Shown: in pieces, positions 48,101 to 64,000 of the stretch | Layout: each line of letters opens with the position of its first letter | Numbering within the stretch: the first letter of the stretch is position 1 | From: a virus | DNA length: 64,000 nt | Virus record (IMG/VR): IMGVR_UViG_3300024348_000007 | Strand: one strand, 5' to 3' | Made by a program: the position numbers and the translations under genes | Notes under the pieces: model-generated | Told to the model about the DNA's origin: nothing | The model's input: only the letters and a program-made list of their open reading frames with translations | Database searches by the model: none

Positions 48101-50695
48101 ACTGCAGGCAGATTAACGTTTGGTTTCACATCTTGGAATAATAACAACACATCACCTTGGGCTGATTATTTACACTTAAGATCTTATACAGATGCATCAG
48201 GTGGATCAGATAACCTTCTTATGTTTAAGAAGTCTGGTCGTGGAATGCGTTTATGGCAACAAACTTTTAACAGTGGTACAGCGTATTCCGCGTATTCTGA
48301 TGTTGCGATATATAACGCAAACCCTGGTAATACGCCTTTCTATGCATCAAGATACTATGATTCAAATAATACTGCATACTACGGTGATTTTGCATCAACA
48401 TCCATTGTTAATATAATTAGGTATGCGTCTGGTGGTTATGCAGAGTTCCAAACAGCAGCCGGTAATATTCGCGGATATATGCAAGCAACTGACGACAACG
48501 ATGCGCACCTTAAAATTGCTACATCGGGCGGTGAAGATATTAGATTTACGGACGGCGGCCTATCCGGTGATTGGAATGTGATTATCAGAGGTGATGGTCA
48601 AACATTAATTCGAAGCAGATTAGACACTCCTATCATGTACGATAGAGATGATACTGGTTATTATAGTAATCCAGCAGGAGCCTCCAACTTTAATACAAGT
48701 ATTCGCGCAAACGAGGTTTATGCACGTAACTGGTTCAGAAATGATAACTCTGGCGAGGGTATGTATAACCAAGCAACGGGTATGCATTGGTATTCAACAA
48801 ATAATACCACTTGGAGAGCATACGGCGGACAGACTACTGTAAAAATAGAAATGAACACAGCTAGTAATACTTTAAGAGGTTCATTCTACGCAAACAATAG
48901 TGATGAAGTAGGTATCTTATCTCAAGATAATGGTTGGGCTTTACAAGCTACTAACTCTAAAGTAGATGCGCACCATAATTTCTATGCTCCTATCTTTTAT
49001 GATAGAGACGATTCAAATTATTATGTAAATCCAGCCGGCGATGCAAGAATTTCTGGTACTGTTCAAGCAAACCGTTTTACACATAGAGATGCAGTATCAC
49101 AAAACGATACTTTTGGACTATATTTTGCTGATAACGCATCTACTGCATACGCGATTTATCGTGAAAGCGGTGGTTGGAGCAGCCCATATCCAGATTTAAG
49201 AATTGCTTTCCATACTGGTATTAAGTTTGGTGCAAACTCTGGTTACCAAGGTATGCGTTTCTATAATGACTATAACATGGTTACTCAGGTTATGTCAATC
49301 AATAATGGTAGTGACCCATTAGGTGCTAACGATGTTTATGTAAATAACTCATTGCAATCAGGCAATTCATTAAGATCGCCTATTTTTTATGACTCGAACG
49401 ATACAGCTCGTTACACGAACCCTGCAAGTACATCTGAAATGGGCACTATACGAGCCGATCGTTTTGATATGCGTGATCGTGGAGATTGGATTACTTTCTA
49501 TGGTGATGATAGTACAAACCATGGTATTGCATCTCGTGGTTCTACAGGAACCGCAACTGACGATATTCGTATTAACACCTATGGTTCTCTTTTTATTAAC
49601 CTAGACTCAAACAACAATAATACATCTGGAGCTGACTTCTATATTGGTCGCCATGGTAGTGCTACTGGTACTATTGCTAATAGTGACTTGTTTAGAGTAT
49701 ACGGTGATGATAACTATGCTTACTCAGCATACAGTTTCAGAGCGCCTATCTTCTATGACTCAAACGACACTGGTTATTATTGTAATCCGAACAGTTCATC
49801 TAATTTTGCTACATCTGTTCGTGCAAATGAATTCTATGCTCGTAACTGGTTCCGTAATGATAATGGCGCAGAAGGTTTATATAACCAAAATAACGGTTGT
49901 CACTTCTATGCGAGATCGTCTCAATACTGGCACGCGACTGGTAATAATAACGCCAGTGCTATTAATATGCAATTAAGATCAACATATGACGGCAATATTA
50001 GGATGTGGTTACACGGTGACTCATCAAGTTGGTGTGGATACTTAAATGATGGCGGTCAATGGATGATTAGAACTAGAATGACAGATGGTTCGTCTCCAAA
50101 CCACTGGTATTATGAGGATTCAAACACAACTTGGACCGGTAACCCTGGGAATGATAAAGGTAAAATTGAATATCACTCAGATAGATTTTATATCGCTGCT
50201 GGTGGTAACTCAAATAGAATTTGTCAATTCCGTAGAGATGGTACTGATAAAGCTTATGTTAATAACGATGGCGTTTATGTCGGTACAGCTACGTCAGCAC
50301 AATGGGCTGACCTTGCAGAAAGATATAGCGCTGACGAAGTTTATGAGAATGGTACATTACTAGGTATGAACCTAGACGGTGAATCTGAAGGTACTCTTTA
50401 TCAACCAGGAATGCCTATCTTAGGAGTTATTTCTACATCGCCTGGTGTTAAAATGAACGACATGGAAATCGAAGATGATAACTCTCTTGAAGGTAAAATG
50501 AACCCTTATATTGCTCTTAAAGGACGTATACCGTGTAAAGTAAATGGAGACGTTAAAAAGGGTCAATGGTTAATACCTGATATTGACGGTAAATGTAAAG
50601 GAATAGATTATGGTACTTCTGGTATAAATAGTCATGAAATTATAGGAATTGCGCTTAGCGACTCCGAAAATGGTGAAGTAGAGGTGAAAGTATAA
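42125..50695 (+). CDS. Long tail fibre (~2856 aa) with ~17 AP.FYDS....YY..P repeats and C-terminal autoproteolytic chaperone-like domain (peptidase G2/IMC-like)
   Basis: ATG at 42125 (MANDKKFIVKNGL) after GGGGAG. GLDADLLDG motifs. C-terminus ADLAERY.AD..YE.GT...GVIST.PG..MN....IALKGRIPCKV.G.VKKG...IIGIAL. Confidence 0.8.
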   Translation: MANDKKFIVKNGLQSENNVLVGTTTDDGVNKLQVSGTTKLINSGSSVPITIENTGGINTPLINFEGGVGALQVKNTGSGDYSILNTSGANEIKFNDNTANGLVFIAGNTDQLKINTTVADFTNVPSINGVPVWYSGNDGAGSGLDADLLDGLNSIQFLRSDENDTFDGDLVITGDLTVQGTRTEIISETVLIADNIITLNSNFTASNPTENAGIEVERGTLTNSIFQWNETMDWWELNSAGTSLGRIITTADEGSGNGFDADTVDGLQASQFIRSDVNDVATGNLEFEGTVAIGNEAGSALLTMRGAGTNRVLSSDNGKIGFLDTGFAYNTYSDANYNWHVGNDVIAKRLLDADDNSYLVDPAGESQLNDVVLVGELYGHDGTAKDGSTYIDLQNNGTTGLIYFNVDGAGLHTTLSKDQMFVNKKVVAPRFEDSNDNGYYVVPSSVSRLSQIQIDDYIIHKGDTNTYFGFDTDDSYKLYINGVQQLAMSASSAVFTNDVEAARFVDSDNNSYFLDPASASTLNTIGIDSDLFHNGDTDTKLSFGTNQIDFNTGGTQRLSIANAASTFSHSVIAPNVYIDDYIYHTGDTPANTTYFGFSADDNFGVVLGGNGALLLTPTATTSIAYIYAPRFVDTDNSARYLDPSATSPLNNISLDGVLQNLNDPDTYLTFASDAVQFYTGNTLRAFINNSYLETTVSVRSPVYYGTSQIVDFLDLDAGAGSDALRVRGRLNIGGGTDVERFNDTTGNGGITISGYAGMGGTTNPSIQVSGANGARSLLSLNKIDIGGNPYSSKNNYFAEFLTDGAAAFSIRGDNSKNAYFIADADQKMVFMDSGANTRLAMDELGNTIIGNDSISFTQGSHTPVLASGAKTDGKLHVDGSIHINGADDALVIGGTTSTFLRDDELGFGSGGGFYMNDTTNLRVRNNKLLTSTGNASFAQYLDANDVLFYGDFASTSRMNNISLVGEVIHDGDTNTKIGFGTDQIIFTAGGTAQLNVYTTYAQATTDMRSPIFSDAGGTFKFEPNTSSAHRFTTPTGWLEIGSKVAGSTAFDTDRALFTFNKRVNFDGGISAADTNDDAYFNRYYDYGDNNYYIDAAGDSQLNTIDIDDFIRHRGDTGTYMGFSAAATYKVVIVGTERLNIDGNSADFNVDVYAPRYYDSNNTNYYVDPGSTSIVNNLRTNQIQMDGSSLIIDSPSGPKGTIMVTGERDSYAGYMIDNDWGFISSGATEMGLYNETDNEWSLLANRNNFTRLYSNNIHQIGAENGYGYAPNRMRAPIFEDSNDTAFYADLAGQSRLKSVKAGDSAIYNNTTYPLEVKSSQERMIVMQNTSADTNFPSILHNTRNSRATMALSFNNIGERFWFEENGNIQAYGAGIFGSLALNGGNEDLGLLKTYGSGLADLKMFDASDYWDKRVIQPMQGSENSATSSTGEYVKNGNGPFASSYALRTAGYRDFDSDYIPVQPGETIYVEQAVRNISGSGGLFYLGVRRYDKDKNPIASNDGIVYFGASAINNTSTSWTEYKGTHTLPTSHTPYNGSDGEGVRYVRVISLMNYSAGGATREFGPPILKRTNVQSDLVTPNLTVEVDLTVGGNATITGDLTVDDITADVITANRFADRGNTAYYVEPLTGAKVAGSWDWTNGSINNLNNLTFNDPGPNEGIKWNGGNLWQIYESPNDLATNTGGNLQFTSGANQGSMRLRVDTSGDVYAGRYHRAQRFYDTNNAAYYADPASTSVLNQVYINEYLRHSGDTDTYLRFIGADDMQLVAGGRQMLRMGEGTDPDRLRFVTDSNWTDSNGDWAMSRNVVVQGTHTAVNSSYAPIFYDYDDNAYYGNFAGTSLMNIVRANRFEVDGSTRYIDGISGQYGTIRVTGNTNGYAGYAINDDWVFMSSGAGMSGIYNDTNNEWSAQFLQNSDVKLYHNGGEKFSTNSGGATIYGRLIADYMADRNNTAYTVNPAGTSRFLDLDVDNPIGGNIAGYSENLLRVDNRDIEPNDHTAGRLTFGFTSWNNNNTSPWADYLHLRSYTDASGGSDNLLMFKKSGRGMRLWQQTFNSGTAYSAYSDVAIYNANPGNTPFYASRYYDSNNTAYYGDFASTSIVNIIRYASGGYAEFQTAAGNIRGYMQATDDNDAHLKIATSGGEDIRFTDGGLSGDWNVIIRGDGQTLIRSRLDTPIMYDRDDTGYYSNPAGASNFNTSIRANEVYARNWFRNDNSGEGMYNQATGMHWYSTNNTTWRAYGGQTTVKIEMNTASNTLRGSFYANNSDEVGILSQDNGWALQATNSKVDAHHNFYAPIFYDRDDSNYYVNPAGDARISGTVQANRFTHRDAVSQNDTFGLYFADNASTAYAIYRESGGWSSPYPDLRIAFHTGIKFGANSGYQGMRFYNDYNMVTQVMSINNGSDPLGANDVYVNNSLQSGNSLRSPIFYDSNDTARYTNPASTSEMGTIRADRFDMRDRGDWITFYGDDSTNHGIASRGSTGTATDDIRINTYGSLFINLDSNNNNTSGADFYIGRHGSATGTIANSDLFRVYGDDNYAYSAYSFRAPIFYDSNDTGYYCNPNSSSNFATSVRANEFYARNWFRNDNGAEGLYNQNNGCHFYARSSQYWHATGNNNASAINMQLRSTYDGNIRMWLHGDSSSWCGYLNDGGQWMIRTRMTDGSSPNHWYYEDSNTTWTGNPGNDKGKIEYHSDRFYIAAGGNSNRICQFRRDGTDKAYVNNDGVYVGTATSAQWADLAERYSADEVYENGTLLGMNLDGESEGTLYQPGMPILGVISTSPGVKMNDMEIEDDNSLEGKMNPYIALKGRIPCKVNGDVKKGQWLIPDIDGKCKGIDYGTSGINSHEIIGIALSDSENGEVEVKV
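50623..50630 (+). promoter_or_regulatory. Candidate T4-type late promoter TATAAATA inside the 3' end of the fibre gene, upstream of the CHxS-repeat/radical SAM operon
   Basis: Exact TATAAATA ending 67 nt before the ATG at 50697. It is intragenic in AT-rich DNA, so it could be chance. Confidence 0.55.
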
Positions 50696-50696
50696 T

Positions 50697-51110
50697 ATGC
50701 CATCATATGCAGATTTAAACACTAGCATGCAAGAAAAAGCTGGGGCACAGCTACGCACGTTTGATAAAGGAATTACTATTACAATACAATCGTGGGTTCG
50801 TATTTGGGGGTTTGATAGCTCTTACGGATCATGGATGATTGTTAACGGCTATGGTTGGTATGGTAATAGTGCTCATTACCACAGATTTGAATATGTTAAC
50901 GCAAATAACACATTGTTTGAAAACTATCTTGATGGCGGAATATATACCGGTGGTATTATCCGTTCACAAGATGTTATTGATTCAATTACCGATGTTGTTC
51001 GAAGAGCTGTTGATTTGGTCGAAGGCAGACTAACTAACAGAAGTATGACTGCACGTCCTTGTCACCAAAGCTGTCATAGTAGTTGTCATACATCTAGAGG
51101 AAGAAGATAA
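50697..51110 (+). CDS. CHxS-repeat protein A (putative radical SAM substrate/precursor)
   Basis: 137 aa ending ...CHQSCHSSCHTSRGRR; GAGG RBS; paralog of the next gene. Confidence 0.8.
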   Translation: MPSYADLNTSMQEKAGAQLRTFDKGITITIQSWVRIWGFDSSYGSWMIVNGYGWYGNSAHYHRFEYVNANNTLFENYLDGGIYTGGIIRSQDVIDSITDVVRRAVDLVEGRLTNRSMTARPCHQSCHSSCHTSRGRR

Positions 51111-51532
51111 TGGCTGCATCAGTATCTGACATTAACTCATATGTACAAACATATTCTGGCTCACAACTAAGAACTTTTGATAAAACCGTCACATATACCG
51201 TAAATACGTATGTTCGGTATTATCGATTTGATAGCGCATATGGCGGTGCGTTGAGGCTTGACGGTGCTCAATATACTACAAACTCAACCTTTACTAGAAG
51301 ATATCTTCATTACTCCTGGACCGGGCGCGATGCACTCTTTGACGGCTATTATGACTCTGGAATTACTGCAGGTGGACTTATGTATGCTCAAGATATTGTA
51401 GATACTGTAGAAGATGCTGTAAGAAGAGCTGTTGATCTAATGGAGGAAAGAATCGTAAATACAGTCAAGACAATTAACGCGTGCCATGCTAGTTGCCATA
51501 GTAGTTGTCACACATCGAGAGGAAGACGCTAA
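51110..51532 (+). CDS. CHxS-repeat protein B (putative radical SAM substrate/precursor)
   Basis: 140 aa ending ...CHASCHSSCHTSRGRR. Shares QLRTFDK, FDS.YG and QD..D...D.VRRAVDL with the previous gene; TAATG coupling on both sides. Confidence 0.8.
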   Translation: MAASVSDINSYVQTYSGSQLRTFDKTVTYTVNTYVRYYRFDSAYGGALRLDGAQYTTNSTFTRRYLHYSWTGRDALFDGYYDSGITAGGLMYAQDIVDTVEDAVRRAVDLMEERIVNTVKTINACHASCHSSCHTSRGRR

Positions 51533-52707
51533 TGTCTATGCAAAAATCATATTGTAAACAAATGAGATATTCTGGACCAGAAAGTCTAACACCATCTGAT
51601 GCATCTAAATTCGATGTTCTTATTCAAATGGAAGTTTTAGCTGGGTGCGATCACGGTTGCTTAGGTTGTTTCGTAGATAAAAACATTAATCCTGATATGA
51701 ACCAACAAATTATTGATAGAGCAAAGGAACTCGCTGATGGTGTAAAAAGAACTGGGCTTAATCTTAGAGAATTTGTCATAGGTCCAACAGATTTCTTTTC
51801 TGCAACTAACACGGAGTCAGTTTTAAATAACTCAGTAGTCCAAGAGATTATGAGAGAACACGTTGGCGCTCGGATTGCAGCACCTGCAAAATTTGATATC
51901 GCTACAATGGAAAGAGTAAAAGAAATCTATGCAATTCTTGATGACGAAGATAAGTATCGCCGTGATATGATCATTGAGTTTATTATGCCAATCGGTAAAG
52001 TAGATCAGATGTTAAATGATGAAGAATACTTTAATAATGTTATGGAAAAAGTAGAATTCTTTAAAAATAATACACCAAAACAAATGGATTGGTCTTGGAC
52101 ACTACAGGCTTCTAACGTTGTTGGTAAGAAGATTGATAAAGAAACATATAACAAGATTGTTCAAAAATCAGTAAACGAATACAAGACTATTGTAGAAATG
52201 AACCCTGCTTTCTCAAGAGCGAGATCCCAATTGGTACAGCGTAGAAACCTGTTTGGATGGAACGATTTCCTTGGTAGAGTTATTGATAAAGATAACGCAC
52301 AAGAGACAGTTATGTCAATGGCTAATCTTTATTGTAACTCAATTAACTTTATTGGACTTACAATCGTACCAGGAGAACACGGACCTACTACACATTTAAA
52401 TGTAATGCTACACGAACAAGCATTCTTCCTTAATAATAAAAACTTAGACGTTACAGGTCTTACCTTCGAAGAAATATTAGATCGTAAAAACGAGCTAGTA
52501 ACCAAGGGCATAAATAGATCAAGCAAAGTATCTGATTGCAACGGATGCCAATTTGCCGTAGCTTGTGCAAGTAGACTAATTTTTGAAGCTCAAGAAACTT
52601 TAAACGTCGATGGATGTGTTTTAAACAAAGATGTCCTTGCAGAATATAACCCATACGATTGGACTTGGAACGACGATGCGATGGAAAAACTAGGAGTAAC
52701 ATCATGA
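51532..52707 (+). CDS. Radical SAM protein (GPTD-type paralog 1)
   Basis: CDHGCLGC (CX3CX2C), IGPTDFF, C-terminal CNGC-X5-C-X16-C. Start moved to ATG 51532, which overlaps the upstream stop. Confidence 0.85.
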   Translation: MSMQKSYCKQMRYSGPESLTPSDASKFDVLIQMEVLAGCDHGCLGCFVDKNINPDMNQQIIDRAKELADGVKRTGLNLREFVIGPTDFFSATNTESVLNNSVVQEIMREHVGARIAAPAKFDIATMERVKEIYAILDDEDKYRRDMIIEFIMPIGKVDQMLNDEEYFNNVMEKVEFFKNNTPKQMDWSWTLQASNVVGKKIDKETYNKIVQKSVNEYKTIVEMNPAFSRARSQLVQRRNLFGWNDFLGRVIDKDNAQETVMSMANLYCNSINFIGLTIVPGEHGPTTHLNVMLHEQAFFLNNKNLDVTGLTFEEILDRKNELVTKGINRSSKVSDCNGCQFAVACASRLIFEAQETLNVDGCVLNKDVLAEYNPYDWTWNDDAMEKLGVTS

Positions 52708-53786
52708 TAGGTCAACACCTTTATTTTTTAAATAACAAAAAATATATTACAAACTCGACTAATCTCGAAACTGTATTTTTCGAGATGAACTCGTTTTATC
52801 ACACGAAAACACCTAGAACAGTTTGTATGATTGAATCATCAATGCCAGACAGCCAAATCGTCCAGTATGATGTAAGAGTACGTGCTGATTCTATTCGCGC
52901 TAATGCCGGTGCTGATATTATTTTTAAACCTTGGGAAGAAGTTTGTACTAGTGAGTTTATCCAAAATAGCGAAAAATATATTCTTGTAGCTTGGGAAGAA
53001 GAAGATCAAATTCACATTCACGCAAGATATGCCGCTGGCTTATTAGCCGCTGCTGGTTTCTATGCAGATACTGATCACGACGTAAACACTATTGTTGGTG
53101 AATTTATGGAAAAAATCTTTGATTGTGATAGTATGTTCACGTATATGTCAGCGGCTCCTGCCGTTCAAGATATATCAAACACAGTTGAAACTATTTTGAA
53201 TAATCCAGAAACTCCACCTTTTGATGTTATATATCAAAACGGTAAAAACTTTAGCTATGACTTTTTATTCTTTTTAAACGAATTCTATCCCTGCGCAGAA
53301 GTACAAGCTCTGTTAATCGAGAAGTTTACAATTCATAGCGCTGATATGGCACAAGATGTTATGGAACACTTTACGTCACGGCGCCACTACTTGGCATATA
53401 TTCTTTCTGTAATTGATTGGATGAACAATAACGGTTTACCAGTAGATAAACAACAATTTGTAAACGATGTTTATATGAAAGCTGCTAATAAAGGTAATTA
53501 TCAAATTGCGTTTTATCAATTGGAAGAGTTATGGAATAGGGTAAAAGATAACGAAGCTTTCATTCTTGCACATACTGATAAAAGAGATAACACAAGAGAT
53601 GGTTGGGAATTTTGGGATATGTATACCGAAATAAGCAACGTATTCCCTATCGTTAAAAAGGTGCTTGAGCGTAGTTTTGATATGGATAATCTAACAGAAG
53701 ACTTGAGGTTGATTAACACTGATGTTCAGTTCTTCTCTAAAAGACAAAATAGAATTCCATATTTGATACACAAATACACATTATAG
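52704..53786 (+). CDS. Hypothetical protein in radical SAM cluster
   Basis: ATG at 52704 overlaps the upstream TGA (ATGA) with AGGAG RBS; no recognisable motif. Confidence 0.75.
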   Translation: MIGQHLYFLNNKKYITNSTNLETVFFEMNSFYHTKTPRTVCMIESSMPDSQIVQYDVRVRADSIRANAGADIIFKPWEEVCTSEFIQNSEKYILVAWEEEDQIHIHARYAAGLLAAAGFYADTDHDVNTIVGEFMEKIFDCDSMFTYMSAAPAVQDISNTVETILNNPETPPFDVIYQNGKNFSYDFLFFLNEFYPCAEVQALLIEKFTIHSADMAQDVMEHFTSRRHYLAYILSVIDWMNNNGLPVDKQQFVNDVYMKAANKGNYQIAFYQLEELWNRVKDNEAFILAHTDKRDNTRDGWEFWDMYTEISNVFPIVKKVLERSFDMDNLTEDLRLINTDVQFFSKRQNRIPYLIHKYTL

Positions 53787-53796
53787 GATGTAATAA

Positions 53797-54702
53797 ATGA
53801 ATGATAATGATACAAACAACTTGAATCCAGACAGAGAATTCGAAGATCACAAACTTTCAGAGCGTGAGAAGAATTTTAAAGCTTATACTTTACCTCTTGC
53901 TCCTCAAGATTTAGTTGCGATATATAAACAAAAAGAAGAAGATAAAGACTTTATTCTCTATGTAGACTACTATCAAACTAAACAGAAATTAAGCCCTAAG
54001 CATATTATTATATATTTGGCAAACACCAACTTTAAGGCTGGCTTTACTTTCTTAGATGAAGAATTAATTACAGAATATATTAAATCAGATTTTATGATTG
54101 ATTGTCCAATTCTTGTGCGTATGGTTTCTATTATAGTCAGAATGAGATTGCATTATGATATCAATGGTGCTGAAAAGAAATTAACTATTTTATTCCCAGA
54201 AGAAAAAATACATCAATTTATTGAACAGAACATTGAATTAGTCGATGAACTAATCGAAACTATTAGAGATTCTGTGCCGTGGGCTATGGTTAATTTGCAT
54301 GAAAACTTGACTGACGAAGCCAAAAAAGAAGAGAAAGAACTTACAAACTTTATTAATAATATTGATGTTTATGATAAACCATCGAATTGCGGACCTAACG
54401 TTGCACGATTTATTACAGAAGCTTGGGACGGGTTTTTATGTATTATTCATAATAAGGGTGTAAGCTCGACTTATAATAAAACAGTTTATAATGAACAACC
54501 AAAGTACTTTGGTAAAGATTTATACTACATTATGAACGAAACTAGGGTTATAGATCAGATTATGGCATTGTTCCCATCATGGTTTTGGGCTAAAATCGAA
54601 ACAGTAGATATAAACGCGCTATTAGAAGAAACTGAGGGCGAACATATCGATAAATTTGTCGACGGTCTTGAAGATAAGTTCAATGATAGTCCATCTAAAT
54701 AA
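53797..54702 (+). CDS. Hypothetical protein in radical SAM cluster
   Basis: 301-aa ORF, AGGA RBS, acidic and probably helical; no recognisable motif. Confidence 0.75.
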   Translation: MNDNDTNNLNPDREFEDHKLSEREKNFKAYTLPLAPQDLVAIYKQKEEDKDFILYVDYYQTKQKLSPKHIIIYLANTNFKAGFTFLDEELITEYIKSDFMIDCPILVRMVSIIVRMRLHYDINGAEKKLTILFPEEKIHQFIEQNIELVDELIETIRDSVPWAMVNLHENLTDEAKKEEKELTNFINNIDVYDKPSNCGPNVARFITEAWDGFLCIIHNKGVSSTYNKTVYNEQPKYFGKDLYYIMNETRVIDQIMALFPSWFWAKIETVDINALLEETEGEHIDKFVDGLEDKFNDSPSK

Positions 54703-55705
54703 TTCTTATGCTGGCTATTATACATATGATGAAGATAAAAGTCCAACAAATATTGATTTTCTCAGAACAGAAATAAATTTAGATATCTTACACGGATGTT
54801 CTCAACAATGTCCTGGATGCTTTATACCAAGAAAAAACTTAACAAAAGCAGATAACCTAGAAACCTTATATAATCTTCTTATAGAAGGCGCGTATTATCC
54901 TGACGAAATAACAATCGGCCCAACTGATATATTCGATGCTGAAAATTTCAATGAAATCATGAATCATCCTTATATGGAAAAAATATACGGAATATCTGCA
55001 GTAGGATTTACATCCACTTTAACTCAACCTTATCAATTAATAAGAGATAAACTTGATAAGATATGGAGTTTATATAACAATATAGCGAGAATACCGGATA
55101 TTGATTTTAAAATTGTTTTAGATATAAACAAATATTTAGATGGAGAATTAGATGATTGGTATCGTAAACTTGCGATGTTTAAACATGGTTCTGTGCAATT
55201 TAGAGTTAACTATCATAAAGATATATTCAAACGCATTTCATACAATGAATTAGCTCAAAAAGTATTCGATGACTTTAACGCGCCAGTTATAATCACGCCT
55301 TCTTTCTTAACTGATAGAAATGCAAGAGGTAAAGTAGAACAACACCTTGCAAACTTTAGACGTGAAATGGTTGAACAAAACATAGATAAAAAATGGCTAA
55401 ACTTATATACATTTTTTGATGCGAAGTTTAACGGTTATGGTTGTCAAAATTATAGTTTTTATAATAACAAACTCTATATTAATCCATTCTTATATGATGT
55501 GATTATTCAACGTACACCTCAGTTTGAAACAAATATGGATGCTAATACTTTATACGACAACATAGAATATGCACAACAAGTTGATGACTGTAATGGATGT
55601 GAATATATGATGAGTTGTGCAGAACGCAACGTTCATTTGTATATGGAGTCGAGAGGATTAGACACTTGCGTCGCATTGAAAGAATACATGTATGCCTCTA
55701 ATTAA
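54683..55705 (+). CDS. Radical SAM protein (GPTD-type paralog 2)
   Basis: CSQQCPGC, IGPTDIF, C-terminal CNGC-X5-C-X16-C; probable ATG at 54683. Confidence 0.85.
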   Translation: MIVHLNNSYAGYYTYDEDKSPTNIDFLRTEINLDILHGCSQQCPGCFIPRKNLTKADNLETLYNLLIEGAYYPDEITIGPTDIFDAENFNEIMNHPYMEKIYGISAVGFTSTLTQPYQLIRDKLDKIWSLYNNIARIPDIDFKIVLDINKYLDGELDDWYRKLAMFKHGSVQFRVNYHKDIFKRISYNELAQKVFDDFNAPVIITPSFLTDRNARGKVEQHLANFRREMVEQNIDKKWLNLYTFFDAKFNGYGCQNYSFYNNKLYINPFLYDVIIQRTPQFETNMDANTLYDNIEYAQQVDDCNGCEYMMSCAERNVHLYMESRGLDTCVALKEYMYASN

Positions 55706-56849
55706 GAATAATCTATACTATGAGATGACCACAGAGACTCAGACAAAGCCTGTATCAGCGGTTAAGATACAGCTAGACGTTTTAGACGGATGCCACCATA
55801 AGTGTCCTGGATGCTTTGTACACAGACGTGGTAACTCAAGTGATAAAAATCAGTTAGAGAATGCAAAGCAATTTATCAGAAGTATTACAGATCAAGGCAT
55901 ACTTGTTGATGAAATATTAATTGGTCCTACTGACTTTTTAGCATCAGAGAATTTCTTTGATGTCATGCCTGATTTATTAGATATTATAAATGAGAACTCT
56001 CCTATATTAGCGTTTGTTTCTACATTAATTGATGGAGACATAGAAGGATTTTGCGAGTTTATTACAGACTATGTAAATTTAGATACTGAGATAGAAATAG
56101 GTATTGCGTCAAATCCTTATAAGTTTTTCGATAAAGACTATTTACAACACATCTCTGATATGTTATATTATATAGATCAAAATCTAGAACATGAAGTAAC
56201 TTATACTTTTGTTGTTAATATAAGAGATTACGATCTAGATTATTCTGAACTTCACAGATACGCGGTAGAAAAGTTTGATACAATCCTAGATTTTATTCCA
56301 AGCGTATCGCGCTCTCATAAAGCAAAAATGATTTTAGAAACTCTTGATAAGTTTAATGATTACTTTAATGTCTTAGCCAAAGATACTAATCTTAATAACA
56401 TTATGGTTGATCATTCTCATGCTGGAATTAATTATACTGTTTTAAACTATAAAAGAGGAGAGTGGTATCTTAGTCCGTTTATGTATGAAAATATGGCAAT
56501 ATACCATGAAATGTTTAAGATAGATTCTTTTGAAGATGTCGTACCAATGGTAGAAGACCAGATACGTAGAGCAAAAGGAACTGAATGTGAAAATTGCGAG
56601 TTGTTTTTTTCTTGTTATAATAGAAAAATTATCTTATTAAGAGATTATTTAGGAGTCGATAGATGCATTGCTCCTAAAAAGAATATGTTGAACAATATAC
56701 ACAATTATAATGGCCCTGCACAAGAAATGTATAAATGGGAAGGATATTCTGTAGAGAATGACAAAAAAGGTTATCGCAAAAAGTTTTTAGTCACCACAGA
56801 TGATGATCCAGAATTAGAAAGAATTAAGGATATATCTTATGTTAAATAA
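55692..56849 (+). CDS. Radical SAM protein (GPTD-type paralog 3)
   Basis: CHHKCPGC, IGPTDFL, C-terminal CENC-X5-C-X16-C. Confidence 0.85.
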   Translation: MPLIKNNLYYEMTTETQTKPVSAVKIQLDVLDGCHHKCPGCFVHRRGNSSDKNQLENAKQFIRSITDQGILVDEILIGPTDFLASENFFDVMPDLLDIINENSPILAFVSTLIDGDIEGFCEFITDYVNLDTEIEIGIASNPYKFFDKDYLQHISDMLYYIDQNLEHEVTYTFVVNIRDYDLDYSELHRYAVEKFDTILDFIPSVSRSHKAKMILETLDKFNDYFNVLAKDTNLNNIMVDHSHAGINYTVLNYKRGEWYLSPFMYENMAIYHEMFKIDSFEDVVPMVEDQIRRAKGTECENCELFFSCYNRKIILLRDYLGVDRCIAPKKNMLNNIHNYNGPAQEMYKWEGYSVENDKKGYRKKFLVTTDDDPELERIKDISYVK

Positions 56850-57996
56850 TGATTGGAAAGATATAGTAAGTGGAGGCGGAATGGGTGAAGAGTTCGCTTC
56901 TATTGATAGTATGAAACAATATAAAATTCAAGTTAACCTAGAAATATTAGAAGGTTGCTCTTATATGTGTCCTGGTTGTTTTGTGAAACGTCGCGGAAAC
57001 TGGCATCCAAAATCAATAACAATGTTTCATTCTTTGGCTTACGAATTAAAAGATAGAACAGACATCGTATTAGATGATATTGTGATAGGACCTACTGATT
57101 TCTACGGAGCTGAAAACTTAGATGAGATTATCAATAATTTAAAATTATCTGACGCCATTAAGATGATGCCAAAAGATAATAGAAACATTCAACACAATTG
57201 TTCTATACTTGGTTCGTTATCTGAGAAAGATATTGAAGGAAAGATAAGAGATATTGAGAAATCGCCTTTAGGAGAAGCAGTAGAAGCCTGGGATGTTCAG
57301 ATCGCTTTGGATTTAAATCGATTAATGAATGACCAAGAATATATCGATGCGCTTGATGAAAGGATAGAGACATTTAAAAACAGCTCTTTAAACTTCGAAA
57401 TATCAATGGCTACTAATATCGTTCAAGGTGTAGAAGAAATACTATACCCAGCTATTGATTTTGTTCGTTCGAAATACGAAACTGTTATCGAAGTATTACC
57501 TTCTGTAGTTAGATCATTTAACCATAGTGCAAAGCACGGTGATAAACTATTTGAATGGAATGATATGTTAACTCGATTGGCATTAGATACGCATCGTTTT
57601 AAAAATAAGTTTCACTTCTTACAGGGAGATGTATCGCATAAAGCATTTAATTATTCAGTTATAAGTATTCACAAAGGAAACATGTATTTGTCTCCTTTCA
57701 TATACGAAAATGCTCAGATACACACAGAAGATTTTCTAGTATCTGATGGTTGGATGTGGTTACCAGATGCTGATATATCTGATTTCATACTAGATAGAAA
57801 GAATGAAATTGTCAATAGTCAAATTGAAAATAGTCTTGAAAAAGAATGTGGAACATGCAAATATCTTAACATATGCGCGAACAGAATGGTGCCATTAATA
57901 ATGGATACAGTATTTAATGGAAGAAAGGAATGCATTCTTAATAAAGATGTTATTGCTTTATTTGATGATGAGGTTTATCATGGGAATAGTTACTAA
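56839..57996 (+). CDS. Radical SAM protein (GPTD-type paralog 4)
   Basis: CSYMCPGC, IGPTDFY, C-terminal CGTC-X5-C-X18-C. Confidence 0.85.
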   Translation: MLNNDWKDIVSGGGMGEEFASIDSMKQYKIQVNLEILEGCSYMCPGCFVKRRGNWHPKSITMFHSLAYELKDRTDIVLDDIVIGPTDFYGAENLDEIINNLKLSDAIKMMPKDNRNIQHNCSILGSLSEKDIEGKIRDIEKSPLGEAVEAWDVQIALDLNRLMNDQEYIDALDERIETFKNSSLNFEISMATNIVQGVEEILYPAIDFVRSKYETVIEVLPSVVRSFNHSAKHGDKLFEWNDMLTRLALDTHRFKNKFHFLQGDVSHKAFNYSVISIHKGNMYLSPFIYENAQIHTEDFLVSDGWMWLPDADISDFILDRKNEIVNSQIENSLEKECGTCKYLNICANRMVPLIMDTVFNGRKECILNKDVIALFDDEVYHGNSY

Positions 57997-58999
57997 TAAC
58001 CTAAGAGCTGCTAAAGCTGATAAAGATTTTGATCTATCATTCTCTGAAGGACATGAAATTAAAGTACAGTTTAATTGCGAAGTATTATCGGGGTGTGAGT
58101 TTAAATGTAAAGGTTGTTTTGTAAACAAACTTGGTTCCAACATGGGATCTTATGATAGACTTAATAACGCTATAGATTTATTTAATGCAAACGGTTACAG
58201 AGTGTCAACCATTAATATTGGGCCTACTGATTTATTTGGTAATAATAATGTTATCGAGTTATTAAAAGACGAAACATTTCGAGAGTGTTTAAGCAAGGTT
58301 TCTACTATACAATTCGTAACAACCCTAACAAGCATTTCGCAAGAAGTTATTGAACTACTTAACAGCATCCCTAAAATAGATGGATTTTTATATGATTGTA
58401 ATATAGCTTTACAACCTCCTGTAAATTGGGATTGGGTAGAAGAGCGATTAGACCTTCTGAATGGATTTACGGATGATCTAAATTATTATATGGTTTATAA
58501 CATGGGTAATGATGACGAGTACAATTCTAAAGTGCTTGAAATGTCAGAACTTGTTGAGGATAGGTTTGACTCAATCCTTACATTAAACCCGTCATTCTTT
58601 AGAGCACCAAAATCTAAGGTTCAAAAACATCTTATTGAGAAATGGAAGAACTATGACTTCTCAGATAATCTTATGCCTAAAACATTTATTGACCAAGCGC
58701 AAGGTGGTTCTTTAGAGTTAAACTATACTTACTGCAACGAACGTTTCTTTTGGACGCCATTCGTATATGACATCGCTTTAATAGGTACTGATGAATTCCA
58801 AGTTAAAGATGAGAACGATATTGAATCATGGACTCAAGTAAAAGAAAATAAGTTTATGTCACAGTTGTCTTATTCAAGTAAAACTGATAACTGCGCCTCT
58901 TGTAAAAACCTAATGACATGTATTGATAAAGGCGTATTAAGTTATATGGAACATCATTCACTTACGGGCTGTACGTTTCCTGGAGTAATAACGACCTAA
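57980..58999 (+). CDS. Radical SAM protein (GPTD-type paralog 5)
   Basis: CEFKCKGC, IGPTDLF, C-terminal CASC-X5-C-X16-C; probable ATG at 57980 after GAGG. Confidence 0.85.
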   Translation: MGIVTNNLRAAKADKDFDLSFSEGHEIKVQFNCEVLSGCEFKCKGCFVNKLGSNMGSYDRLNNAIDLFNANGYRVSTINIGPTDLFGNNNVIELLKDETFRECLSKVSTIQFVTTLTSISQEVIELLNSIPKIDGFLYDCNIALQPPVNWDWVEERLDLLNGFTDDLNYYMVYNMGNDDEYNSKVLEMSELVEDRFDSILTLNPSFFRAPKSKVQKHLIEKWKNYDFSDNLMPKTFIDQAQGGSLELNYTYCNERFFWTPFVYDIALIGTDEFQVKDENDIESWTQVKENKFMSQLSYSSKTDNCASCKNLMTCIDKGVLSYMEHHSLTGCTFPGVITT

Positions 59000-59671
59000 G
59001 AATGTTCTTGGAAACGAATCATTAATCTTACCCCATTGTTCCATGCTATCTACAAATATATTTTTAAAAGTAACATCGATATCTTCCATTGGATAAATCG
59101 CCATCAGATCGTTACCGTAATTTAATCTAACTTCGTATGTTTCGTCTTTTAAAGGAAACAATAAGAATACATTAATCGCATGTTGATCATAGAAATTAAG
59201 AACGCCTGGTGCTACAAGTATCCCATGCTTGCGTAAATCTTCACTGTAATGAAATTCACAATTCATAAAATCTACTGGCTTCTTAGCTTTTAAATACCAA
59301 GGAGCTTCTAATTTCACGACAGCATATCCCTTATAAAAATCATCGCCATACTGTCTTTGTTCATGCACACCAGTACTGACTTGATGAGAATGCAACGGAC
59401 TTGCAGACGAAACCTTTCCGTTTGGTTCAACTCTAAAAATCATATCGGACCACAATCTCATTATAATAGCTTTTTGCATATATTGTGTAATTCCAGGACA
59501 AGCCTTTACAGTTGGGGTTGGAACCATAATGCCTGACTTTGAATTATAAACAGTGTACATTGTCGACAATTTTTTCCACCATGAAGGCTTTCTAATTTTA
59601 GATGTCCATTTAAAATTTTCGAAAACGCTTTTATCGTAAGTGTAAGCTTCAATCTCTAGTTTTTTTCTCAT
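58958..59671 (-). CDS. Hypothetical protein (TVKACPGI...W.D family, beta-rich)
   Basis: Long ORF ending the - strand cassette. TVKACPGITQYM..AIIMRLWSD resembles a recurrent phage hypothetical family of unknown function. Confidence 0.65.
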   Translation of the reverse strand: MRKKLEIEAYTYDKSVFENFKWTSKIRKPSWWKKLSTMYTVYNSKSGIMVPTPTVKACPGITQYMQKAIIMRLWSDMIFRVEPNGKVSSASPLHSHQVSTGVHEQRQYGDDFYKGYAVVKLEAPWYLKAKKPVDFMNCEFHYSEDLRKHGILVAPGVLNFYDQHAINVFLLFPLKDETYEVRLNYGNDLMAIYPMEDIDVTFKNIFVDSMEQWGKINDSFPRTFLGRYYSRKRTARK

Positions 59672-60728
59672 AATCAAATCCTGTAATTAAGTTCTGTCCA
59701 GTTTTTTCCATATAGTTAAACCACATTCTCATGATGCAGTCAGGTAAGTCTCGTTCTCTATTCTTCCAATCCCATTGGGTATAACATCTAAATCCACATT
59801 TGTTCCACCACTTACAAGATAAACAACCATTCTCGTCCATATATGCTTGCATCATACCAGCATTATCTTTGGGTTTATATTCTGTATTAAAATCTCTCTG
59901 ATCATATCTATCCCATCTACAGTTTGACGTAGAATTATCGGGGAATATCGTAACCTTATTTAAAGCCAAGCAATGCATATGGTTACTATCATTATATATA
60001 AGATCTTTTATAGGATTAATATCGGGATAGTTATGATATACAAATTTAAGAAATTCTAAGTATTCACTATCAGATGGAATCATATAATCATAACCACGAT
60101 CTGGAATGTAATCATCAAAGTAAAAGTTATCAAACTTTTCATATAGATAGTGAAAATACTCATCATCGTCTGCCATAAACTTTTTTATTGATAAAGTAGT
60201 AGCAACCATATTAATTGATACGATATAGTCGGCAAAGTATTCTATATTTTTAGCATATGGACCTTTTGTTGGTCGCCCATCAAAGTCATATGAACATATA
60301 ATATGTGAAGGAATTGCTTCAGCGTTTAGGTCGTCGAGCAGTCGCTGAACTCTGTCTCGTTTACTAAATTGAAACGATGTTACCCACACAACTTTAATTT
60401 TTTGTTTATGTTCGTCAAATATCTTTTTAATTGCTACAAGGAAATCAAAGTAAACAGGGTAAGCCCATTCTGATATTCTATCTTGGAATAACTCACCGCC
60501 AACCATATTGATTTGGATTATATCAACTCTGCCTTTCATCTTAATGACATGTTGTTCAACTAAATCCAATTTAGAGAATATCTCTTCCCTACTCAATCCT
60601 ACGGTAGATTTTTTATCATGATGGCAGAACGAACAATTGAGGTGACAGTTTTCAAATAAAGTCAACTCAATCTCAGCGATATCAGGTCGTTTAGTTTCTA
60701 ATAATGTTTTTGTTATTTCAAAGTCCAA
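59649..60728 (-). CDS. Radical SAM protein with SPASM-like C-terminus
   Basis: CHLNCSFC, MVGGELF, C-terminal HC...NC...CLSCKWWNKCGFRC...DC. Probable TTG start at 60728 after GAGG (ORF open to 60785). Confidence 0.85.
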   Translation of the reverse strand: MDFEITKTLLETKRPDIAEIELTLFENCHLNCSFCHHDKKSTVGLSREEIFSKLDLVEQHVIKMKGRVDIIQINMVGGELFQDRISEWAYPVYFDFLVAIKKIFDEHKQKIKVVWVTSFQFSKRDRVQRLLDDLNAEAIPSHIICSYDFDGRPTKGPYAKNIEYFADYIVSINMVATTLSIKKFMADDDEYFHYLYEKFDNFYFDDYIPDRGYDYMIPSDSEYLEFLKFVYHNYPDINPIKDLIYNDSNHMHCLALNKVTIFPDNSTSNCRWDRYDQRDFNTEYKPKDNAGMMQAYMDENGCLSCKWWNKCGFRCYTQWDWKNRERDLPDCIMRMWFNYMEKTGQNLITGFDYEKKTRD

Positions 60729-61116
60729 ATAACATTTCCTCTTTATAGTATTCGTAGATATCGGGAACCATACCAAGTTTTTCATTAAACTCTAGTTGGA
60801 ATAGTATCTCGTCGTAAGTTTCTTTGTCTTGCCAATATGGAACAAAGTGCGGATCATTATTAAATAGTAACTCAGGATCGTTAAGTGCATCGAAAAACGG
60901 TTCGTTAAAATCCCTGTTTAACCAATGAGCATAACATATAGCAACTACATATGATTTAGCTGGGTAAATCCATTCGTCTACATACTCTCTGAAGTGTGTT
61001 AGAGCAAACTCAACCGTAAGGTCAGGTTGCCAATTAATCTCCACGTCAGTCAGATCATCTTTGAATAAAGATGCTGTCAAATGATATGCGCTTTGTCTAG
61101 CTTTCCATTCTTTCAT
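60718..61116 (-). CDS. Hypothetical protein in radical SAM cluster
   Basis: Acidic, aromatic-rich ~132-aa ORF overlapping both neighbouring radical SAM genes; start at 61116 or 61143. Confidence 0.7.
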   Translation of the reverse strand: MKEWKARQSAYHLTASLFKDDLTDVEINWQPDLTVEFALTHFREYVDEWIYPAKSYVVAICYAHWLNRDFNEPFFDALNDPELLFNNDPHFVPYWQDKETYDEILFQLEFNEKLGMVPDIYEYYKEEMLFGL

Positions 61117-62005
61117 AATATTCCAACAATCCTTTATATCCATTACAACTATTAGTCAAATCTTTAACATATCGGTAATGTTCTGTTAAACAATTACCAT
61201 AATATTTACACGTCTTACATATTTCGCTTAGATTGTTCTCAGGTTCTTCCCTTGCCCACTTCTTGTACTCATAATATGTTTTATATTCTTTGAAGTATTC
61301 CCTATCATATTTATCGAACTCCAATACCCCAAACTTACCAGATGGAGTAATATACACATGATCATTACTAAAAGCATCATACTCTTTATCTATGCTTCTC
61401 CATATATTATCCATATTCTGAAAATTAAACTTTTTCTCTGTTTTTGCTTCGTCAAACTTAATAACAAAATCTTCAAAGTCTTTGTGTGTAACAGGATGTG
61501 CATTTGCTTGGTTTATTGAGTAAGGTTTAATTTCTACAGACTTAATATTAGATACCATATTAAGAGTGAAGATCATAAACTCTACATCCATCTCTAATAC
61601 TTTTGGAGAGGCCAATATTAATACAGATAAATCCTTATTGGCGTTCATCATATTATTTAAAACATGCTGTTCTTTTTCTCTGGCATGGAAATCATATGAT
61701 ACAGATAATGTTACATCCTCATCTCGAAAGAAGTCTGGGAACGCAGACAAATTAGTATTGATATTGATAGGACCTTTGTAATAATTACGTATTACTTTCT
61801 TTAATGAATAATAATATTCTGGTGATAGTAAACCAATCTCACCGCCGTATAGATCTACGTGCCCTATTTGATCATCTACTTGACTTAAAGAATGATCTAA
61901 CCATAAAGGCGTTATCTTATGTCTATCGTTTAATTGTGCTGGCGTTAAATAACAAAAATCACAACTGAAGTTACAATAGTAGGTGGGATTAATTGATAGA
62001 TTCAT
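61097..62005 (-). CDS. Radical SAM protein with partial SPASM-like C-terminus
   Basis: NPTYYCNFSCDFC, LYGGEIG, C-terminal CKTCKYYGNCLTEH...SC; start at 62005 or 62011. Confidence 0.85.
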   Translation of the reverse strand: MNLSINPTYYCNFSCDFCYLTPAQLNDRHKITPLWLDHSLSQVDDQIGHVDLYGGEIGLLSPEYYYSLKKVIRNYYKGPININTNLSAFPDFFRDEDVTLSVSYDFHAREKEQHVLNNMMNANKDLSVLILASPKVLEMDVEFMIFTLNMVSNIKSVEIKPYSINQANAHPVTHKDFEDFVIKFDEAKTEKKFNFQNMDNIWRSIDKEYDAFSNDHVYITPSGKFGVLEFDKYDREYFKEYKTYYEYKKWAREEPENNLSEICKTCKYYGNCLTEHYRYVKDLTNSCNGYKGLLEYYERMES

Positions 62006-63026
62006 CAACATAAGGCGTCACCATATCTGGGCTCATTCCATTCGTAGCAAGTATTCTTGGAGCGAGCGTTTTCATTTGTTTGCAATGTGCTTCATTTGTC
62101 CCTTCTCTTTTCATATCACGTACTGTCTTTTTACAACCATTACATATTTCGAACATTGGACACGTATAGCAAGCCATCTTCATTGTTTGGATATGAGGAT
62201 CGTTAGCCAATGGAGTCTGCATTTCGCCATTCATTTCTTCCTCAAAATCAATAGGATAATCCATATCATCAGCAAACGAACCGCAAGAATAGTAATCACC
62301 GCCAGGGTTAAAAGCTCGAATGCCACTATCACATTGTCTATTTTGTGGACAAGATGTTGAAAAACCTTTGAGGCGTTTCATCATTTGCTTTGTATTATAT
62401 TCGTATTCTGCTAATCCACGATCGTATATCTCAAGATATGTTTCGTAAATCTTACTTAACTGATATGTACTGCCTTGAACACCAGAAGCCATAGCATAAT
62501 TTAGTTTGCATTCTACACCCATTTCTTTAGCAAGTTCAACGTTCTTAATAGCAAGATGTTCGTTCTCATCTGTTATGACGGCAATAAAGTCTGGTCTTTC
62601 TCCAGTGTGTTTCAACATAGCGTTTGATACCATCCAAAAATCTTTCTCAGTAAATTCGGAATAATCACCTTTTAATCTACCACCACCATATTGAAATGAT
62701 GTTGCACAACCAAACCTATCATTCTTAAAGATAGGAAGCCACTTCTCGGGACGCATTAAAAAAGGCCACAGATTAGATGTAAAACTAATTGATGCGGGAT
62801 AATCATGTTCATTAAGATGATCTATTAGTTCCTGATAATATTCTGGCTTTACCATAAGAGGGTCACCACCATTAACGATAATAGTATTAGTATCGGGATA
62901 TCGCTTAAGAAATTTGTATATGTATTCCAAGTCTAATAAGCCAACTTCGTTAGGATCGATGTCGGTAGAAGAACAAAATGTACATTTAAAATTGCAAGCT
63001 TCAGTGGGTTTAATAATTAAATCCAT
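61989..63026 (-). CDS. Radical SAM/SPASM domain protein
   Basis: IIKPTEACNFKCTFC, NGGDPL, SPASM-like CPQNRQC...YSCG...CYTCPMFEICNGC...HC. Confidence 0.9.
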   Translation of the reverse strand: MDLIIKPTEACNFKCTFCSSTDIDPNEVGLLDLEYIYKFLKRYPDTNTIIVNGGDPLMVKPEYYQELIDHLNEHDYPASISFTSNLWPFLMRPEKWLPIFKNDRFGCATSFQYGGGRLKGDYSEFTEKDFWMVSNAMLKHTGERPDFIAVITDENEHLAIKNVELAKEMGVECKLNYAMASGVQGSTYQLSKIYETYLEIYDRGLAEYEYNTKQMMKRLKGFSTSCPQNRQCDSGIRAFNPGGDYYSCGSFADDMDYPIDFEEEMNGEMQTPLANDPHIQTMKMACYTCPMFEICNGCKKTVRDMKREGTNEAHCKQMKTLAPRILATNGMSPDMVTPYVDESIN

Positions 63027-64000
63027 CCCTTATCTCCTGCTAGTTTTAGCATTAGAGTTTTAGGCGCTGGACAAACGTCTTCCATCCATTGAAGTTGGTG
63101 ACAATCAGAATGGCAATAGATAAAGACTGGGCAATCATAACATCTTGGATCACGATCATGAGTTTCACACGAAATGATTTCCATTCGTTTCGGGCTTAAT
63201 CTTACTTCTTTTGCTGGCATACTAATATCACCATACCATTGAGTAGGCGCAGTATTAGGACAACCTGCTACAGTTCCATCAGCATTGATTGTGTGTATCT
63301 TTTGTTCACAATCCCTACAGAACGTACCATTAAAGAATTGACCTTTACTAAACTTATCATAAACTGAGTTAAGAAAGTTGTTTTCAATAGGGTGATCTTT
63401 AGTTGTCTCATGCATTTTCATCCAAAAAGCATCGAGCTCAGAATTATGAGGGAAGATTTCTGTGTTTATCGTTGCGTTACCATCATGAGTAAGTCTTTCA
63501 TAACTAATAGTACCAATACCTAATGAATACATATAATCAGCAATTTCAAGAGGATCCATTGCAACAACATCTTTAGACACTGAAATAAAGCATTGGATAT
63601 AACATCCCTCAGCTACCAAAAGCTTTACATTATCTTCCCATAACTTTCTCTGCTTTTCATTTGCAAATCTAATATTTGGGTCCCAAGATGTACCGATAGA
63701 ACCAGAGTCTAATATTTTAAGAAACTCGATACGTTCATCTGTAAGTTTATAAGTTAGATTTGTTGTAATACCATGTGTGCATTTATCACCCCAATGATCT
63801 TTCGTAACATTGTAGAAATGCCACAGATCTTTCATAGGCGCTAGCAAAGGTTCTCCACCATGATATTCGAAGTGAATACGGTTTGAACCATCGTCTAGTT
63901 CGTTACACCACTTTGCAGTTTTATCTGCATCAAAATAAATTTTACGACCATTGATACCAGAGGTAAAACAATGTGCACAATTTAAATTACAAGTTTCTGT
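63017..64000 (-). CDS. Radical SAM/SPASM domain protein, 5'-truncated by the window end
   Basis: The frame stays open upstream of the listed ORF to base 64000 and reads TETCNLNCAHCFTSG...EYHGGEPLLAP. SPASM-like CRDC...GCP...CYDC-X5-C-X3-C...C. Confidence 0.9.
   Translation of the reverse strand, partial: TETCNLNCAHCFTSGINGRKIYFDADKTAKWCNELDDGSNRIHFEYHGGEPLLAPMKDLWHFYNVTKDHWGDKCTHGITTNLTYKLTDERIEFLKILDSGSIGTSWDPNIRFANEKQRKLWEDNVKLLVAEGCYIQCFISVSKDVVAMDPLEIADYMYSLGIGTISYERLTHDGNATINTEIFPHNSELDAFWMKMHETTKDHPIENNFLNSVYDKFSKGQFFNGTFCRDCEQKIHTINADGTVAGCPNTAPTQWYGDISMPAKEVRLSPKRMEIISCETHDRDPRCYDCPVFIYCHSDCHQLQWMEDVCPAPKTLMLKLAGDKGWI

Follow-up and report, generated by a model that had tools for sequence, protein, structure and literature searches.

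A family of atypical radical SAM enzymes with a GPTD motif accompanies genes for Cys-His-x-Ser-tailed proteins in phage tail-fibre modules

The sequence described in the present study, hereafter the window, is the whole stretch of DNA that we analysed, 64,000 nucleotides (64 kb out of a 66.4-kb virus contig, IMG/VR record IMGVR_UViG_3300024348_000007), and our subject is a run of radical SAM (S-adenosylmethionine) genes within it. Positions 51532-58999 hold seven overlapping plus-strand genes, five of which encode members of a single radical SAM family that we call the GPTD family (paralogues A to E), and the other two, u1 and u2, are unrelated to it and lie between A and B. Directly upstream are two genes for small proteins with a C-terminal Cys/His tail (tailed proteins A and B), and downstream lies a convergent minus-strand block (58958-64000) which encodes four further radical SAM enzymes, m2, m4, m5 and m6, whose GGE or GGD motifs are ordinary and whose SPASM cysteine sets are fuller, plus the proteins m1 and m3. 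We refer to this whole group of genes, the coordinates of which are given in Table 1, as the cassette. The source of the window is a marine T4-like phage that carries five old and diverged copies of the GPTD-family radical SAM gene.

A preliminary description of this DNA, made from the sequence alone, had reported that all five paralogues share GCxxxCxGC(F), IGPTD and a C-terminal CX2CX5CX16-18C, with a PF.Y segment in four of them, and our alignment bears this out. The columns invariant in the five are a leucine, G-C-x3-C-x-G-C-F, I-G-P-T-D, an asparagine six residues later and C-x2-C-x5-C-x16-C (x18 in paralogue D), and all of them except A have PF.Y(E/D). The proteins are otherwise highly diverged, as had also been stated, with pairwise identities in the alignment of 18-25% among the five and of 18-24% to paralogue A. 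A profile built from the five retrieved 217 clusters at E ≤ 0.001, and 82 at E ≤ 1e-30, from 1.84 billion representative proteins, and given so small a yield the profile does not reach beyond the family into the radical SAM superfamily at large. The cluster cysteines of CX3CX2C are invariant in 134/134 family members, and G40, P79, T80, D81, N87, R207 and the four C-terminal cysteines are each kept in at least 90% of these. As this conservation holds across 134 members with a mean column identity of 18%, the shared motifs are not a matter of chance.

Searches against known families were then consistent in giving sub-threshold results. No Pfam or NCBIfam family matched any of the five paralogues above threshold: the best Pfam score, for PF04055 with paralogue C, was 20.6 bits against a gathering threshold of 29.5, the other four gave no PF04055 row at E ≤ 1, and TIGR04085 (SPASM) appeared only with paralogue D, at 14.1 bits against a cut-off of 27. 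All five matched PHROG 31457, which is unannotated, with E values of 1e-5 to 1e-8, these matches being partial and weak. The nearest clusters in the ESM Atlas were virus-only hypothetical proteins, and a sequence search of the PDB (Protein Data Bank) with the 134-sequence profile found no significant match other than the Cys-loop of GDGT-MAS (E 0.008). In profile-profile comparisons, m2, m4, m5 and m6 matched each other with probabilities of 96-99% and the GPTD family matched them with probabilities of 8-92%. We found no description of the family or of the cassette in the searchable literature, where genome papers go no further than to list ‘radical SAM genes’. The GPTD family is an undescribed and sharply bounded radical SAM subfamily, and the earlier view of it as a distinct subfamily therefore holds, with 217 clusters in 1.84 billion proteins and no known family above threshold.

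The family departs from other radical SAM enzymes at its most conserved positions. Radical SAM enzymes normally carry an aromatic SAM contact before the third cluster cysteine; the residue at this place is phenylalanine or histidine in the four core enzymes m2, m4, m5 and m6, and glycine (G40) in at least 90% of GPTD-family members. At the end of strand β2 the GGE motif is replaced by G-P-T-D, and of the seven-Cys SPASM motif, CX9-15GX4C...CX2CX5CX3C...C, the five paralogues hold only CX2CX5C-X16-18-C. When aligned with m6, CX2CX5C falls on the first three cysteines of the CX2CX5CX3C of m6, an arginine stands at the position of the fourth, and the last cysteine falls on the last cysteine of m6; the fourth cysteine of CX2CX5CX3C is found in only 3/150 representatives. 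This alignment agrees with the earlier proposal that the C-terminal cysteine set represents the second half of the SPASM motif only. The four positions are presumably the AuxII ligands, following descriptions of SPASM domains from the anSME structures, with the missing cysteines all belonging to AuxI, and the family is accordingly predicted from its sequences to have a single AuxII-type auxiliary [4Fe-4S] site.

The AlphaFold2 model of paralogue C had a mean pLDDT (predicted local distance difference test) of 93.9 and a pTM (predicted template-modelling score) of 0.93, and displays a partial TIM-barrel with six βα units after the Cys loop, with Z scores of 8-15.6 to many solved radical SAM enzymes. 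The barrel starts at approximately residue 22 and is not preceded by an extra N-terminal domain of the RRE or PqqD-like type. The best structural match was anSME (Z 15.6 over 298 residues, root-mean-square deviation 4.4), with further scores of 14.3 for ChlB, 13.6 for CteB, 12.9 for TigE and 12.5 for SuiB and lower ones for SkfB (11.6), MoaA (11.2) and BtrN (8.6); the top Foldseek match, CteB (PDB 5WHY, E 3.6e-6), agrees with the leading group of this ranking. All of the best fold matches are SPASM-group enzymes that mature proteins or peptides, and the structural alignments cover model residues 22-345, including the C-terminal domain, a fold common to anSME, CteB and SuiB. Judged by this model, the fold class of the family is that of radical SAM/SPASM-type enzymes. 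Strand β2 comprises residues 71-78 and is followed directly by P79-T80-D81, and in the profile alignment IGPTD falls on the HGGEP of m6; because of these two observations we place GPTD in the GGE(P) site, where the preliminary description had expected it.

Each of the five paralogues forms its own well-supported orthogroup in trees constructed with FastTree and IQ-TREE, and the family tree has two halves, one with all five of them and the other with the jumbo-phage copies. A given window paralogue is 60-98% identical with its positional counterpart in most marine relatives (~32-38% in some) and ~20-25% identical with its neighbours in the window, and the gene order is identical even in relatives in which the tailed protein is only 62% or 41% identical. 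Own orthogroups and a kept gene order support the great age that had been claimed for an in-phage expansion; the restriction to phages did not survive, since the cassette was also found on a secA-bearing contig (see below). Nor are the five an exclusive clade, because sequences from Bdellovibrionota MAGs (metagenome-assembled genomes) nest among the five paralogue groups (quick IQ-TREE topology, starred branches). All five are under strong purifying selection, with a non-synonymous divergence (dN) of 0.08-0.22, a saturated synonymous divergence (dS) and dN/dS values of ~0.02-0.09 where computable, and the five genes are better conserved than those for the tailed proteins, u1 and u2, with every cysteine kept. 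The suggestion that some of them might be non-catalytic subunits finds no support here, every motif being retained in all five at dN/dS values of ~0.05-0.09. From their sequences, the five paralogues look like active members of their family, and would presumably cleave SAM.

The remainder of the plus strand carries T4-type baseplate and fibre genes, as identified by PHROG matches, including giant genes of 4013 and 2859 aa (amino acids), and a giant gene is also found at the position equivalent to that of the latter in relatives L003-L007. Exact TATAAATA sites occur at 8181, 18155, 29836, 35412, 42079 and 50623, all of them on the plus strand and mostly just upstream of structural genes, and none precedes the minus-strand block within the window. 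As their count is below expectation (6 compared with 11 expected by chance), it is strand and position that suggest that these sites are late promoters of the T4 type. A 140-aa ORF (open reading frame) at 30235-30657 lies directly behind the 4013-aa giant gene, which is the placement that the tailed proteins have behind the 2859-aa gene; as a candidate for a third tailed protein it was rejected, having neither a Cys/His tail nor a PHROG match.

With regard to the other genes of the cassette, the best NCBIfam matches of m5 were DynA and anSME, both far below their cut-offs, and that of m6 was PapB, again sub-threshold. Neither u1 nor u2 has a detectable family in Pfam or NCBIfam. Among the matches listed, to which the counts of loci here and below refer, u1 is almost confined to the two-substrate, multi-copy marine form of the cassette (25/33 loci with two tailed genes and four loci with one), and relatives of u2 adjoin the tailed gene in many cassettes that have no GPTD enzymes.

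Table 1 Features of the tail-fibre end of the window and of the radical SAM cassette
Feature	Coordinates	Strand	Basis or remark
Giant fibre-like structural gene, 2859 aa	42116..50695	+	Directly upstream of cassette; ORF list; neighbours match baseplate/tail-fibre PHROGs
TATAAATA, T4-type late-promoter-like site	50623..50630	+	67 nt upstream of tailed gene A; position only
Tailed protein A, 137 aa, ends CHQSCHSSCHTSRGRR, presumed substrate	50697..51110	+	PHROG 35144 matches
Tailed protein B, 140 aa, ends CHASCHSSCHTSRGRR, presumed substrate	51110..51532	+	Homologue tails; AlphaFold2 model
GPTD-family radical SAM paralogue A	51532..52707	+	Own orthogroup; longest ORF starts at TTG 51505
Protein u1, ~360 aa	52704..53786	+	Multi-copy marine cassette form; no Pfam/NCBIfam match
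Protein u2, 301 aa	53797..54702	+	PHROG 20767; co-occurrence
GPTD-family paralogue B	54683..55705	+	Start uncertain: 54656 or 54683
GPTD-family paralogue C (copy modelled)	55692..56849	+	AlphaFold2 pLDDT 93.9; fold matches
GPTD-family paralogue D, CX2CX5CX18C	56839..57996	+	Alignment
GPTD-family paralogue E	57980..58999	+	Start uncertain: 57917 or 57980
Protein m1, 239 aa, first gene of convergent block	58958..59677	-	No family match
Core radical SAM/SPASM enzyme m2, GGE and CX2CX5CX3C	59649..60785	-	Orthologues in RSL2, DT01 and Atu_ph07
Small core protein m3, 141 aa	60718..61143	-	Co-occurrence
Core radical SAM enzyme m4, GGE and CX2CX5CX14C	61097..62011	-	Motifs; co-occurrence
Core radical SAM/SPASM enzyme m5	61989..63026	-	Pfam Radical_SAM 36.8 bits
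Core radical SAM/SPASM enzyme m6, N-terminus cut at window end	63017..64000	-	SPASM 27.1 bits against cut-off of 27

The genes for tailed proteins A and B follow the 2859-aa gene after one base. The two proteins are paralogues, 47% identical overall, and their last 16 residues, CH(Q/A)S-CHSS-CHTS-RGRR, differ at one position. The sequence (CHxS)3RGRR, or a near variant of it, forms the C-terminal end in 119/120 homologues; rare variants found elsewhere have four CHxS repeats (L015), CHCS as the first unit (L013) or RSRR in place of RGRR (phage Atu_ph07, L145), and at L149:5881-6453 the tail reads CHSN-CHSN-HSS-RGRR, the third cysteine being lost. No occurrence of the strings ‘SRGRR’ or ‘SCHTSRGRR’ was found in the papers listed by a literature search. 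The AlphaFold2 model of tailed protein B (pLDDT 80) comprises a small α/β domain and a disordered tail; no fold relatives were detected by Foldseek at E ≤ 0.001, and the VIA-wide best Z score of 5.5 was at background level. The homologues include short marine proteins, with a conserved N-terminal (Q)LRTFDK motif (59/74 in two-tail loci), and long proteins of other phages, which lack this motif and start with ...QNIVDRF...VWGT.N.P... instead, and the two classes have only a C-terminal module of ~75 residues in common.

One of the long proteins has been detected in particles. The tailed protein of the Agrobacterium phage Atu_ph07 (AUZ94952.1; L145:9044-9934) is 296 aa long, with a calculated mass of 31.89 kDa, and ends in CHSSCHASCHNSRSRR, and its C-terminal 78 residues are homologous with the tailed proteins of the window (hhalign 97%). 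This protein is gp170 of the published annotation, and the masses of gp176 and gp177 served to verify that numbering. Eight peptides, with 35% coverage, represent gp170 in the published proteome of the virion, and the cassette enzymes of Atu_ph07 are absent from the virion list (PMC6102473). A homologous tailed protein is thus a component of the virion in Atu_ph07. In addition, gp170 was reportedly most abundant in gel band 1, containing proteins of >120 kDa, whereas other proteins of 30-34 kDa peaked in bands 7-8 (PMC6102473), a single observation which suggests an SDS (sodium dodecyl sulfate)-resistant or covalent attachment to something large.

To survey the cassette, the tail was used as a degenerate DNA pattern, which occurs on more than 118 viral contigs at the least and on 18 contigs of species-representative genomes. 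The loci were annotated with hidden Markov models built from the window proteins, and the GPTD counts per locus are lower bounds, as many of the DNA stretches end before the cassette does. The recurrent order of the core genes is m6 - tailed gene - (u2) - m2 - m5 - m4 - m3, and in most other cassettes m6 directly adjoins the tailed gene. The core of the cassette is formed by m6, m2, m5 and m4, which are canonical radical SAM/SPASM enzymes, together with the virion protein ending in (CHxS)3-RGRR. This core is widespread, occurring on more than 130 phage contigs and also on chromosomes of Bdellovibrionota. Among 100 loci with one tailed gene, 80 had no GPTD gene, 12 had one, six had two, one had four and one had five; among 33 loci with two tandem short tailed genes, 31 had at least one and up to six. 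In the window and in every marine relative, the GPTD genes directly follow the two tailed genes, and in this lineage their number ranges from 2 (L046 and L063) to 6 (L076) with two tailed proteins; L034 has four copies and one tailed protein. In cultured phages we found one copy in the Ralstonia phages RSL2 and RSF1 and the Burkholderia phages FLC6, FLC8 and S13, two copies in the Pseudomonas phage pPa_SNUABM_DT01 and none in Atu_ph07. Members of distant subclades still adjoin m6, m5, m2 and a tailed gene. Because the copy number varies at the same three-repeat tail, the GPTD family is an optional and repeatedly expanded add-on to the core, present in 0-6 copies.

Two further loci deserve mention here. 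A 4.3-kb metagenomic contig (L148:1-4308) carries four tandem GPTD genes of a subclade far from that of the window five, and this set is an independent tandem expansion. In the cassette of the Burkholderia phage S13, two genes, gp77-78 (L144:14335-15512), are annotated as dihydrofolate reductases, and this annotation may be wrong, because the genes stand between core radical SAM genes.

The cassette was also identified on a 32-kb MAG contig of the Pseudobdellovibrionaceae (G001:C55; L146/L147), where it is complete and comprises a tailed gene, core enzymes and GPTD members. The same contig encodes SecA and a DctP-type (TRAP-type) solute-binding protein, and the cassette is adjoined by two proteins that combine an N-terminal pilin methylation motif with a Peptidase_S74 fibre-chaperone domain; two B12-binding radical SAM genes also lie beside it. 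As this is a secA-bearing Bdellovibrionota contig, the GPTD family is not confined to viruses.

We compared the GPTD family with known maturation systems. The enzyme anSME (PDB 4K36-4K39; TIGR03942) acts on a cysteine or serine of a protein substrate and has no separate RRE leader-binding domain, and it is the best fold match, covering both the barrel and the C-terminal Fe-S domain. However, GGE, a SPASM motif with all seven cysteines and two auxiliary clusters are found in anSME, whereas the GPTD family has only the CX2CX5C...C set; in addition, none of the five paralogues gave an NCBIfam match to it, and the tail lacks the C/S-x-P/A-x-R substrate motif. The second likeness is to CteB, the SCIFF maturase (5WHY), and to PapB of the ranthipeptides, the former being the top Foldseek match (Z 13.6) and the latter the best match of m6. 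The precursors of SCIFF and freyrasin have a cysteine at every fourth residue, like CHxS, and CteB binds a substrate cysteine on AuxI; in contrast, the GPTD family has no AuxI ligand at all and no N-terminal RRE domain. Twitch enzymes (BtrN, SkfB and MoaA) have a single auxiliary cluster, the number predicted for the GPTD family, in a shortened C-terminal domain, and are weaker fold matches. The Twitch cluster occupies the AuxI position, whereas the four-Cys set of the GPTD family aligns with the AuxII ligands of the full SPASM paralogue m6. In the literature, the closest functional analogue is the HXS antiphage system, in which two radical SAM enzymes, HxsB and HxsC, act with HxsD to mature HxsA, a protein with HxS repeats, and in which a change of +8 Da was mapped to the His/Ser motif (PMC13128918). 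The resemblance lies in a tandem His-x-Ser repeat protein that is matured by several radical SAM enzymes, but HXS is a bacterial defence system rather than a phage fibre module, and its repeats have neither the cysteine nor the RGRR end. The core enzymes m6, m5 and m4 match HxsB/HxsC (TIGR03978/TIGR03977) weakly, at 15-30 bits against cut-offs of 268-370, and the five GPTD paralogues have no Hxs match in NCBIfam.

The invariant Cys-His-x-Ser tail of a small virion protein is the probable target of the cassette. We propose, giving the idea about an even chance of being correct, that the GPTD enzymes join the four core enzymes as accessory maturases that tailor the tailed virion proteins. In favour of this are the motifs, the fold matches, all of the nearest being to maturases, the constant gene neighbourhood, the selection on all five paralogues and the presence of the homologous gp170 in virions. 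Late in infection, both tailed proteins would be made together with the enzymes, and the core enzymes would modify the Cys/His/Ser tail first. Every GPTD paralogue would then abstract hydrogen at a site or step specific to it on these tailed proteins and so introduce additional cross-links or oxidations, and the product would afterwards enter the particle. In this scheme we infer the identity of the substrate, the cleavage of SAM by the GPTD enzymes and the chemistry alike. Some of our observations weigh against it. The loci L096 and L097 encode a near-identical tailed protein and only L096 has a GPTD gene, so that the invariant tail does not need the GPTD enzymes, and the 80 single-tail loci (of 100) mentioned above have no GPTD gene in the DNA stretch examined. 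Moreover, SAM cleavage is not assured, because GGE and the aromatic residue before the third cysteine are both replaced, and, judging by known SPASM structures (anSME and CteB), a lone AuxII-type cluster would be distant from the active site.

Unlikely in our opinion, although by no means negligible, is the possibility that the GPTD enzymes act on another target, which might be u1/u2, the giant fibre protein encoded directly upstream or, within the short tailed proteins, their N-terminal domain. Such a target would fit a tail that is invariant with or without GPTD genes, the company that multi-copy GPTD sets keep with u1 and with the short substrate type and its N-terminal (L)RTFDK motif, and the constant position of the cassette next to fibre genes. 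However, single GPTD copies also accompany long substrates that lack (L)RTFDK (L096, L121, L047 and RSL2), the fibre proteins show no conservation among these phages, and no other Cys- or His-rich candidate was seen.

Rather improbable, in our view, is the explanation that the GPTD proteins are Fe-S proteins which no longer cleave SAM and serve as scaffold, chaperone or electron-transfer partners that present the tail, possibly as hetero-oligomers. The invariant CX3CX2C, a barrel modelled at high confidence, the conservation of D81 and N87 in the SAM loop and the strong purifying selection on all copies argue against it, even though the change of GGE to GPT(D), the near-invariant glycine in place of the aromatic residue, the lack of an RRE-like domain and the many paralogues side by side with overlapping genes are features that one might expect of such partners.

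We see only a slight probability that the family is a new mechanistic class, in which the Cys/His tail of the substrate would enter the vacated AuxI site, ligate or complete a metal cluster and be cross-linked there; on this reading, the AuxI ligands and SAM-contact motifs would have been lost because the substrate tail enters the AuxI site. If this were true, the product would be a metal-binding or covalent joint that fixes a small protein to phage fibres and to fibre-like proteins of predatory bacteria, and a first sign of such bonding would be that gp170, despite its 32 kDa, runs mainly at the top of an SDS gel. The strict version of an idea in the preliminary description, with one paralogue for each CHxS unit of each of two substrates, is very improbable and is contradicted by the copy-number data: expanded GPTD sets do go with two substrates and window-type cassettes hold five copies, near the six predicted, but 0-6 copies occur at the same tail, two-substrate loci start at two copies (L046 and L063) and run to six (L076), four copies accompany one substrate in L034, a different subclade is represented by four tandem copies in L148, and most cassettes hold no GPTD gene yet have the same three repeats.

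Radical SAM enzymology rests on a few near-universal motifs, and the GPTD family is a natural test of the need for them, as its Cys triad is under strong selection, yet GGE and the aromatic contact have been replaced and only the distal auxiliary cluster appears to be kept. To our knowledge, post-translational chemistry of such complexity as that proposed above has not been described for virion proteins. The family also marks a large and unstudied cassette for protein maturation, in which as many as nine radical SAM enzymes occur. This cassette is tied to tail-fibre modules in marine T4-like phages and in jumbo phages that infect plant and animal pathogens, as well as to proteins of fibre-like type in the Bdellovibrionota, and its chemistry could bear on host recognition or on the stability of the particle.

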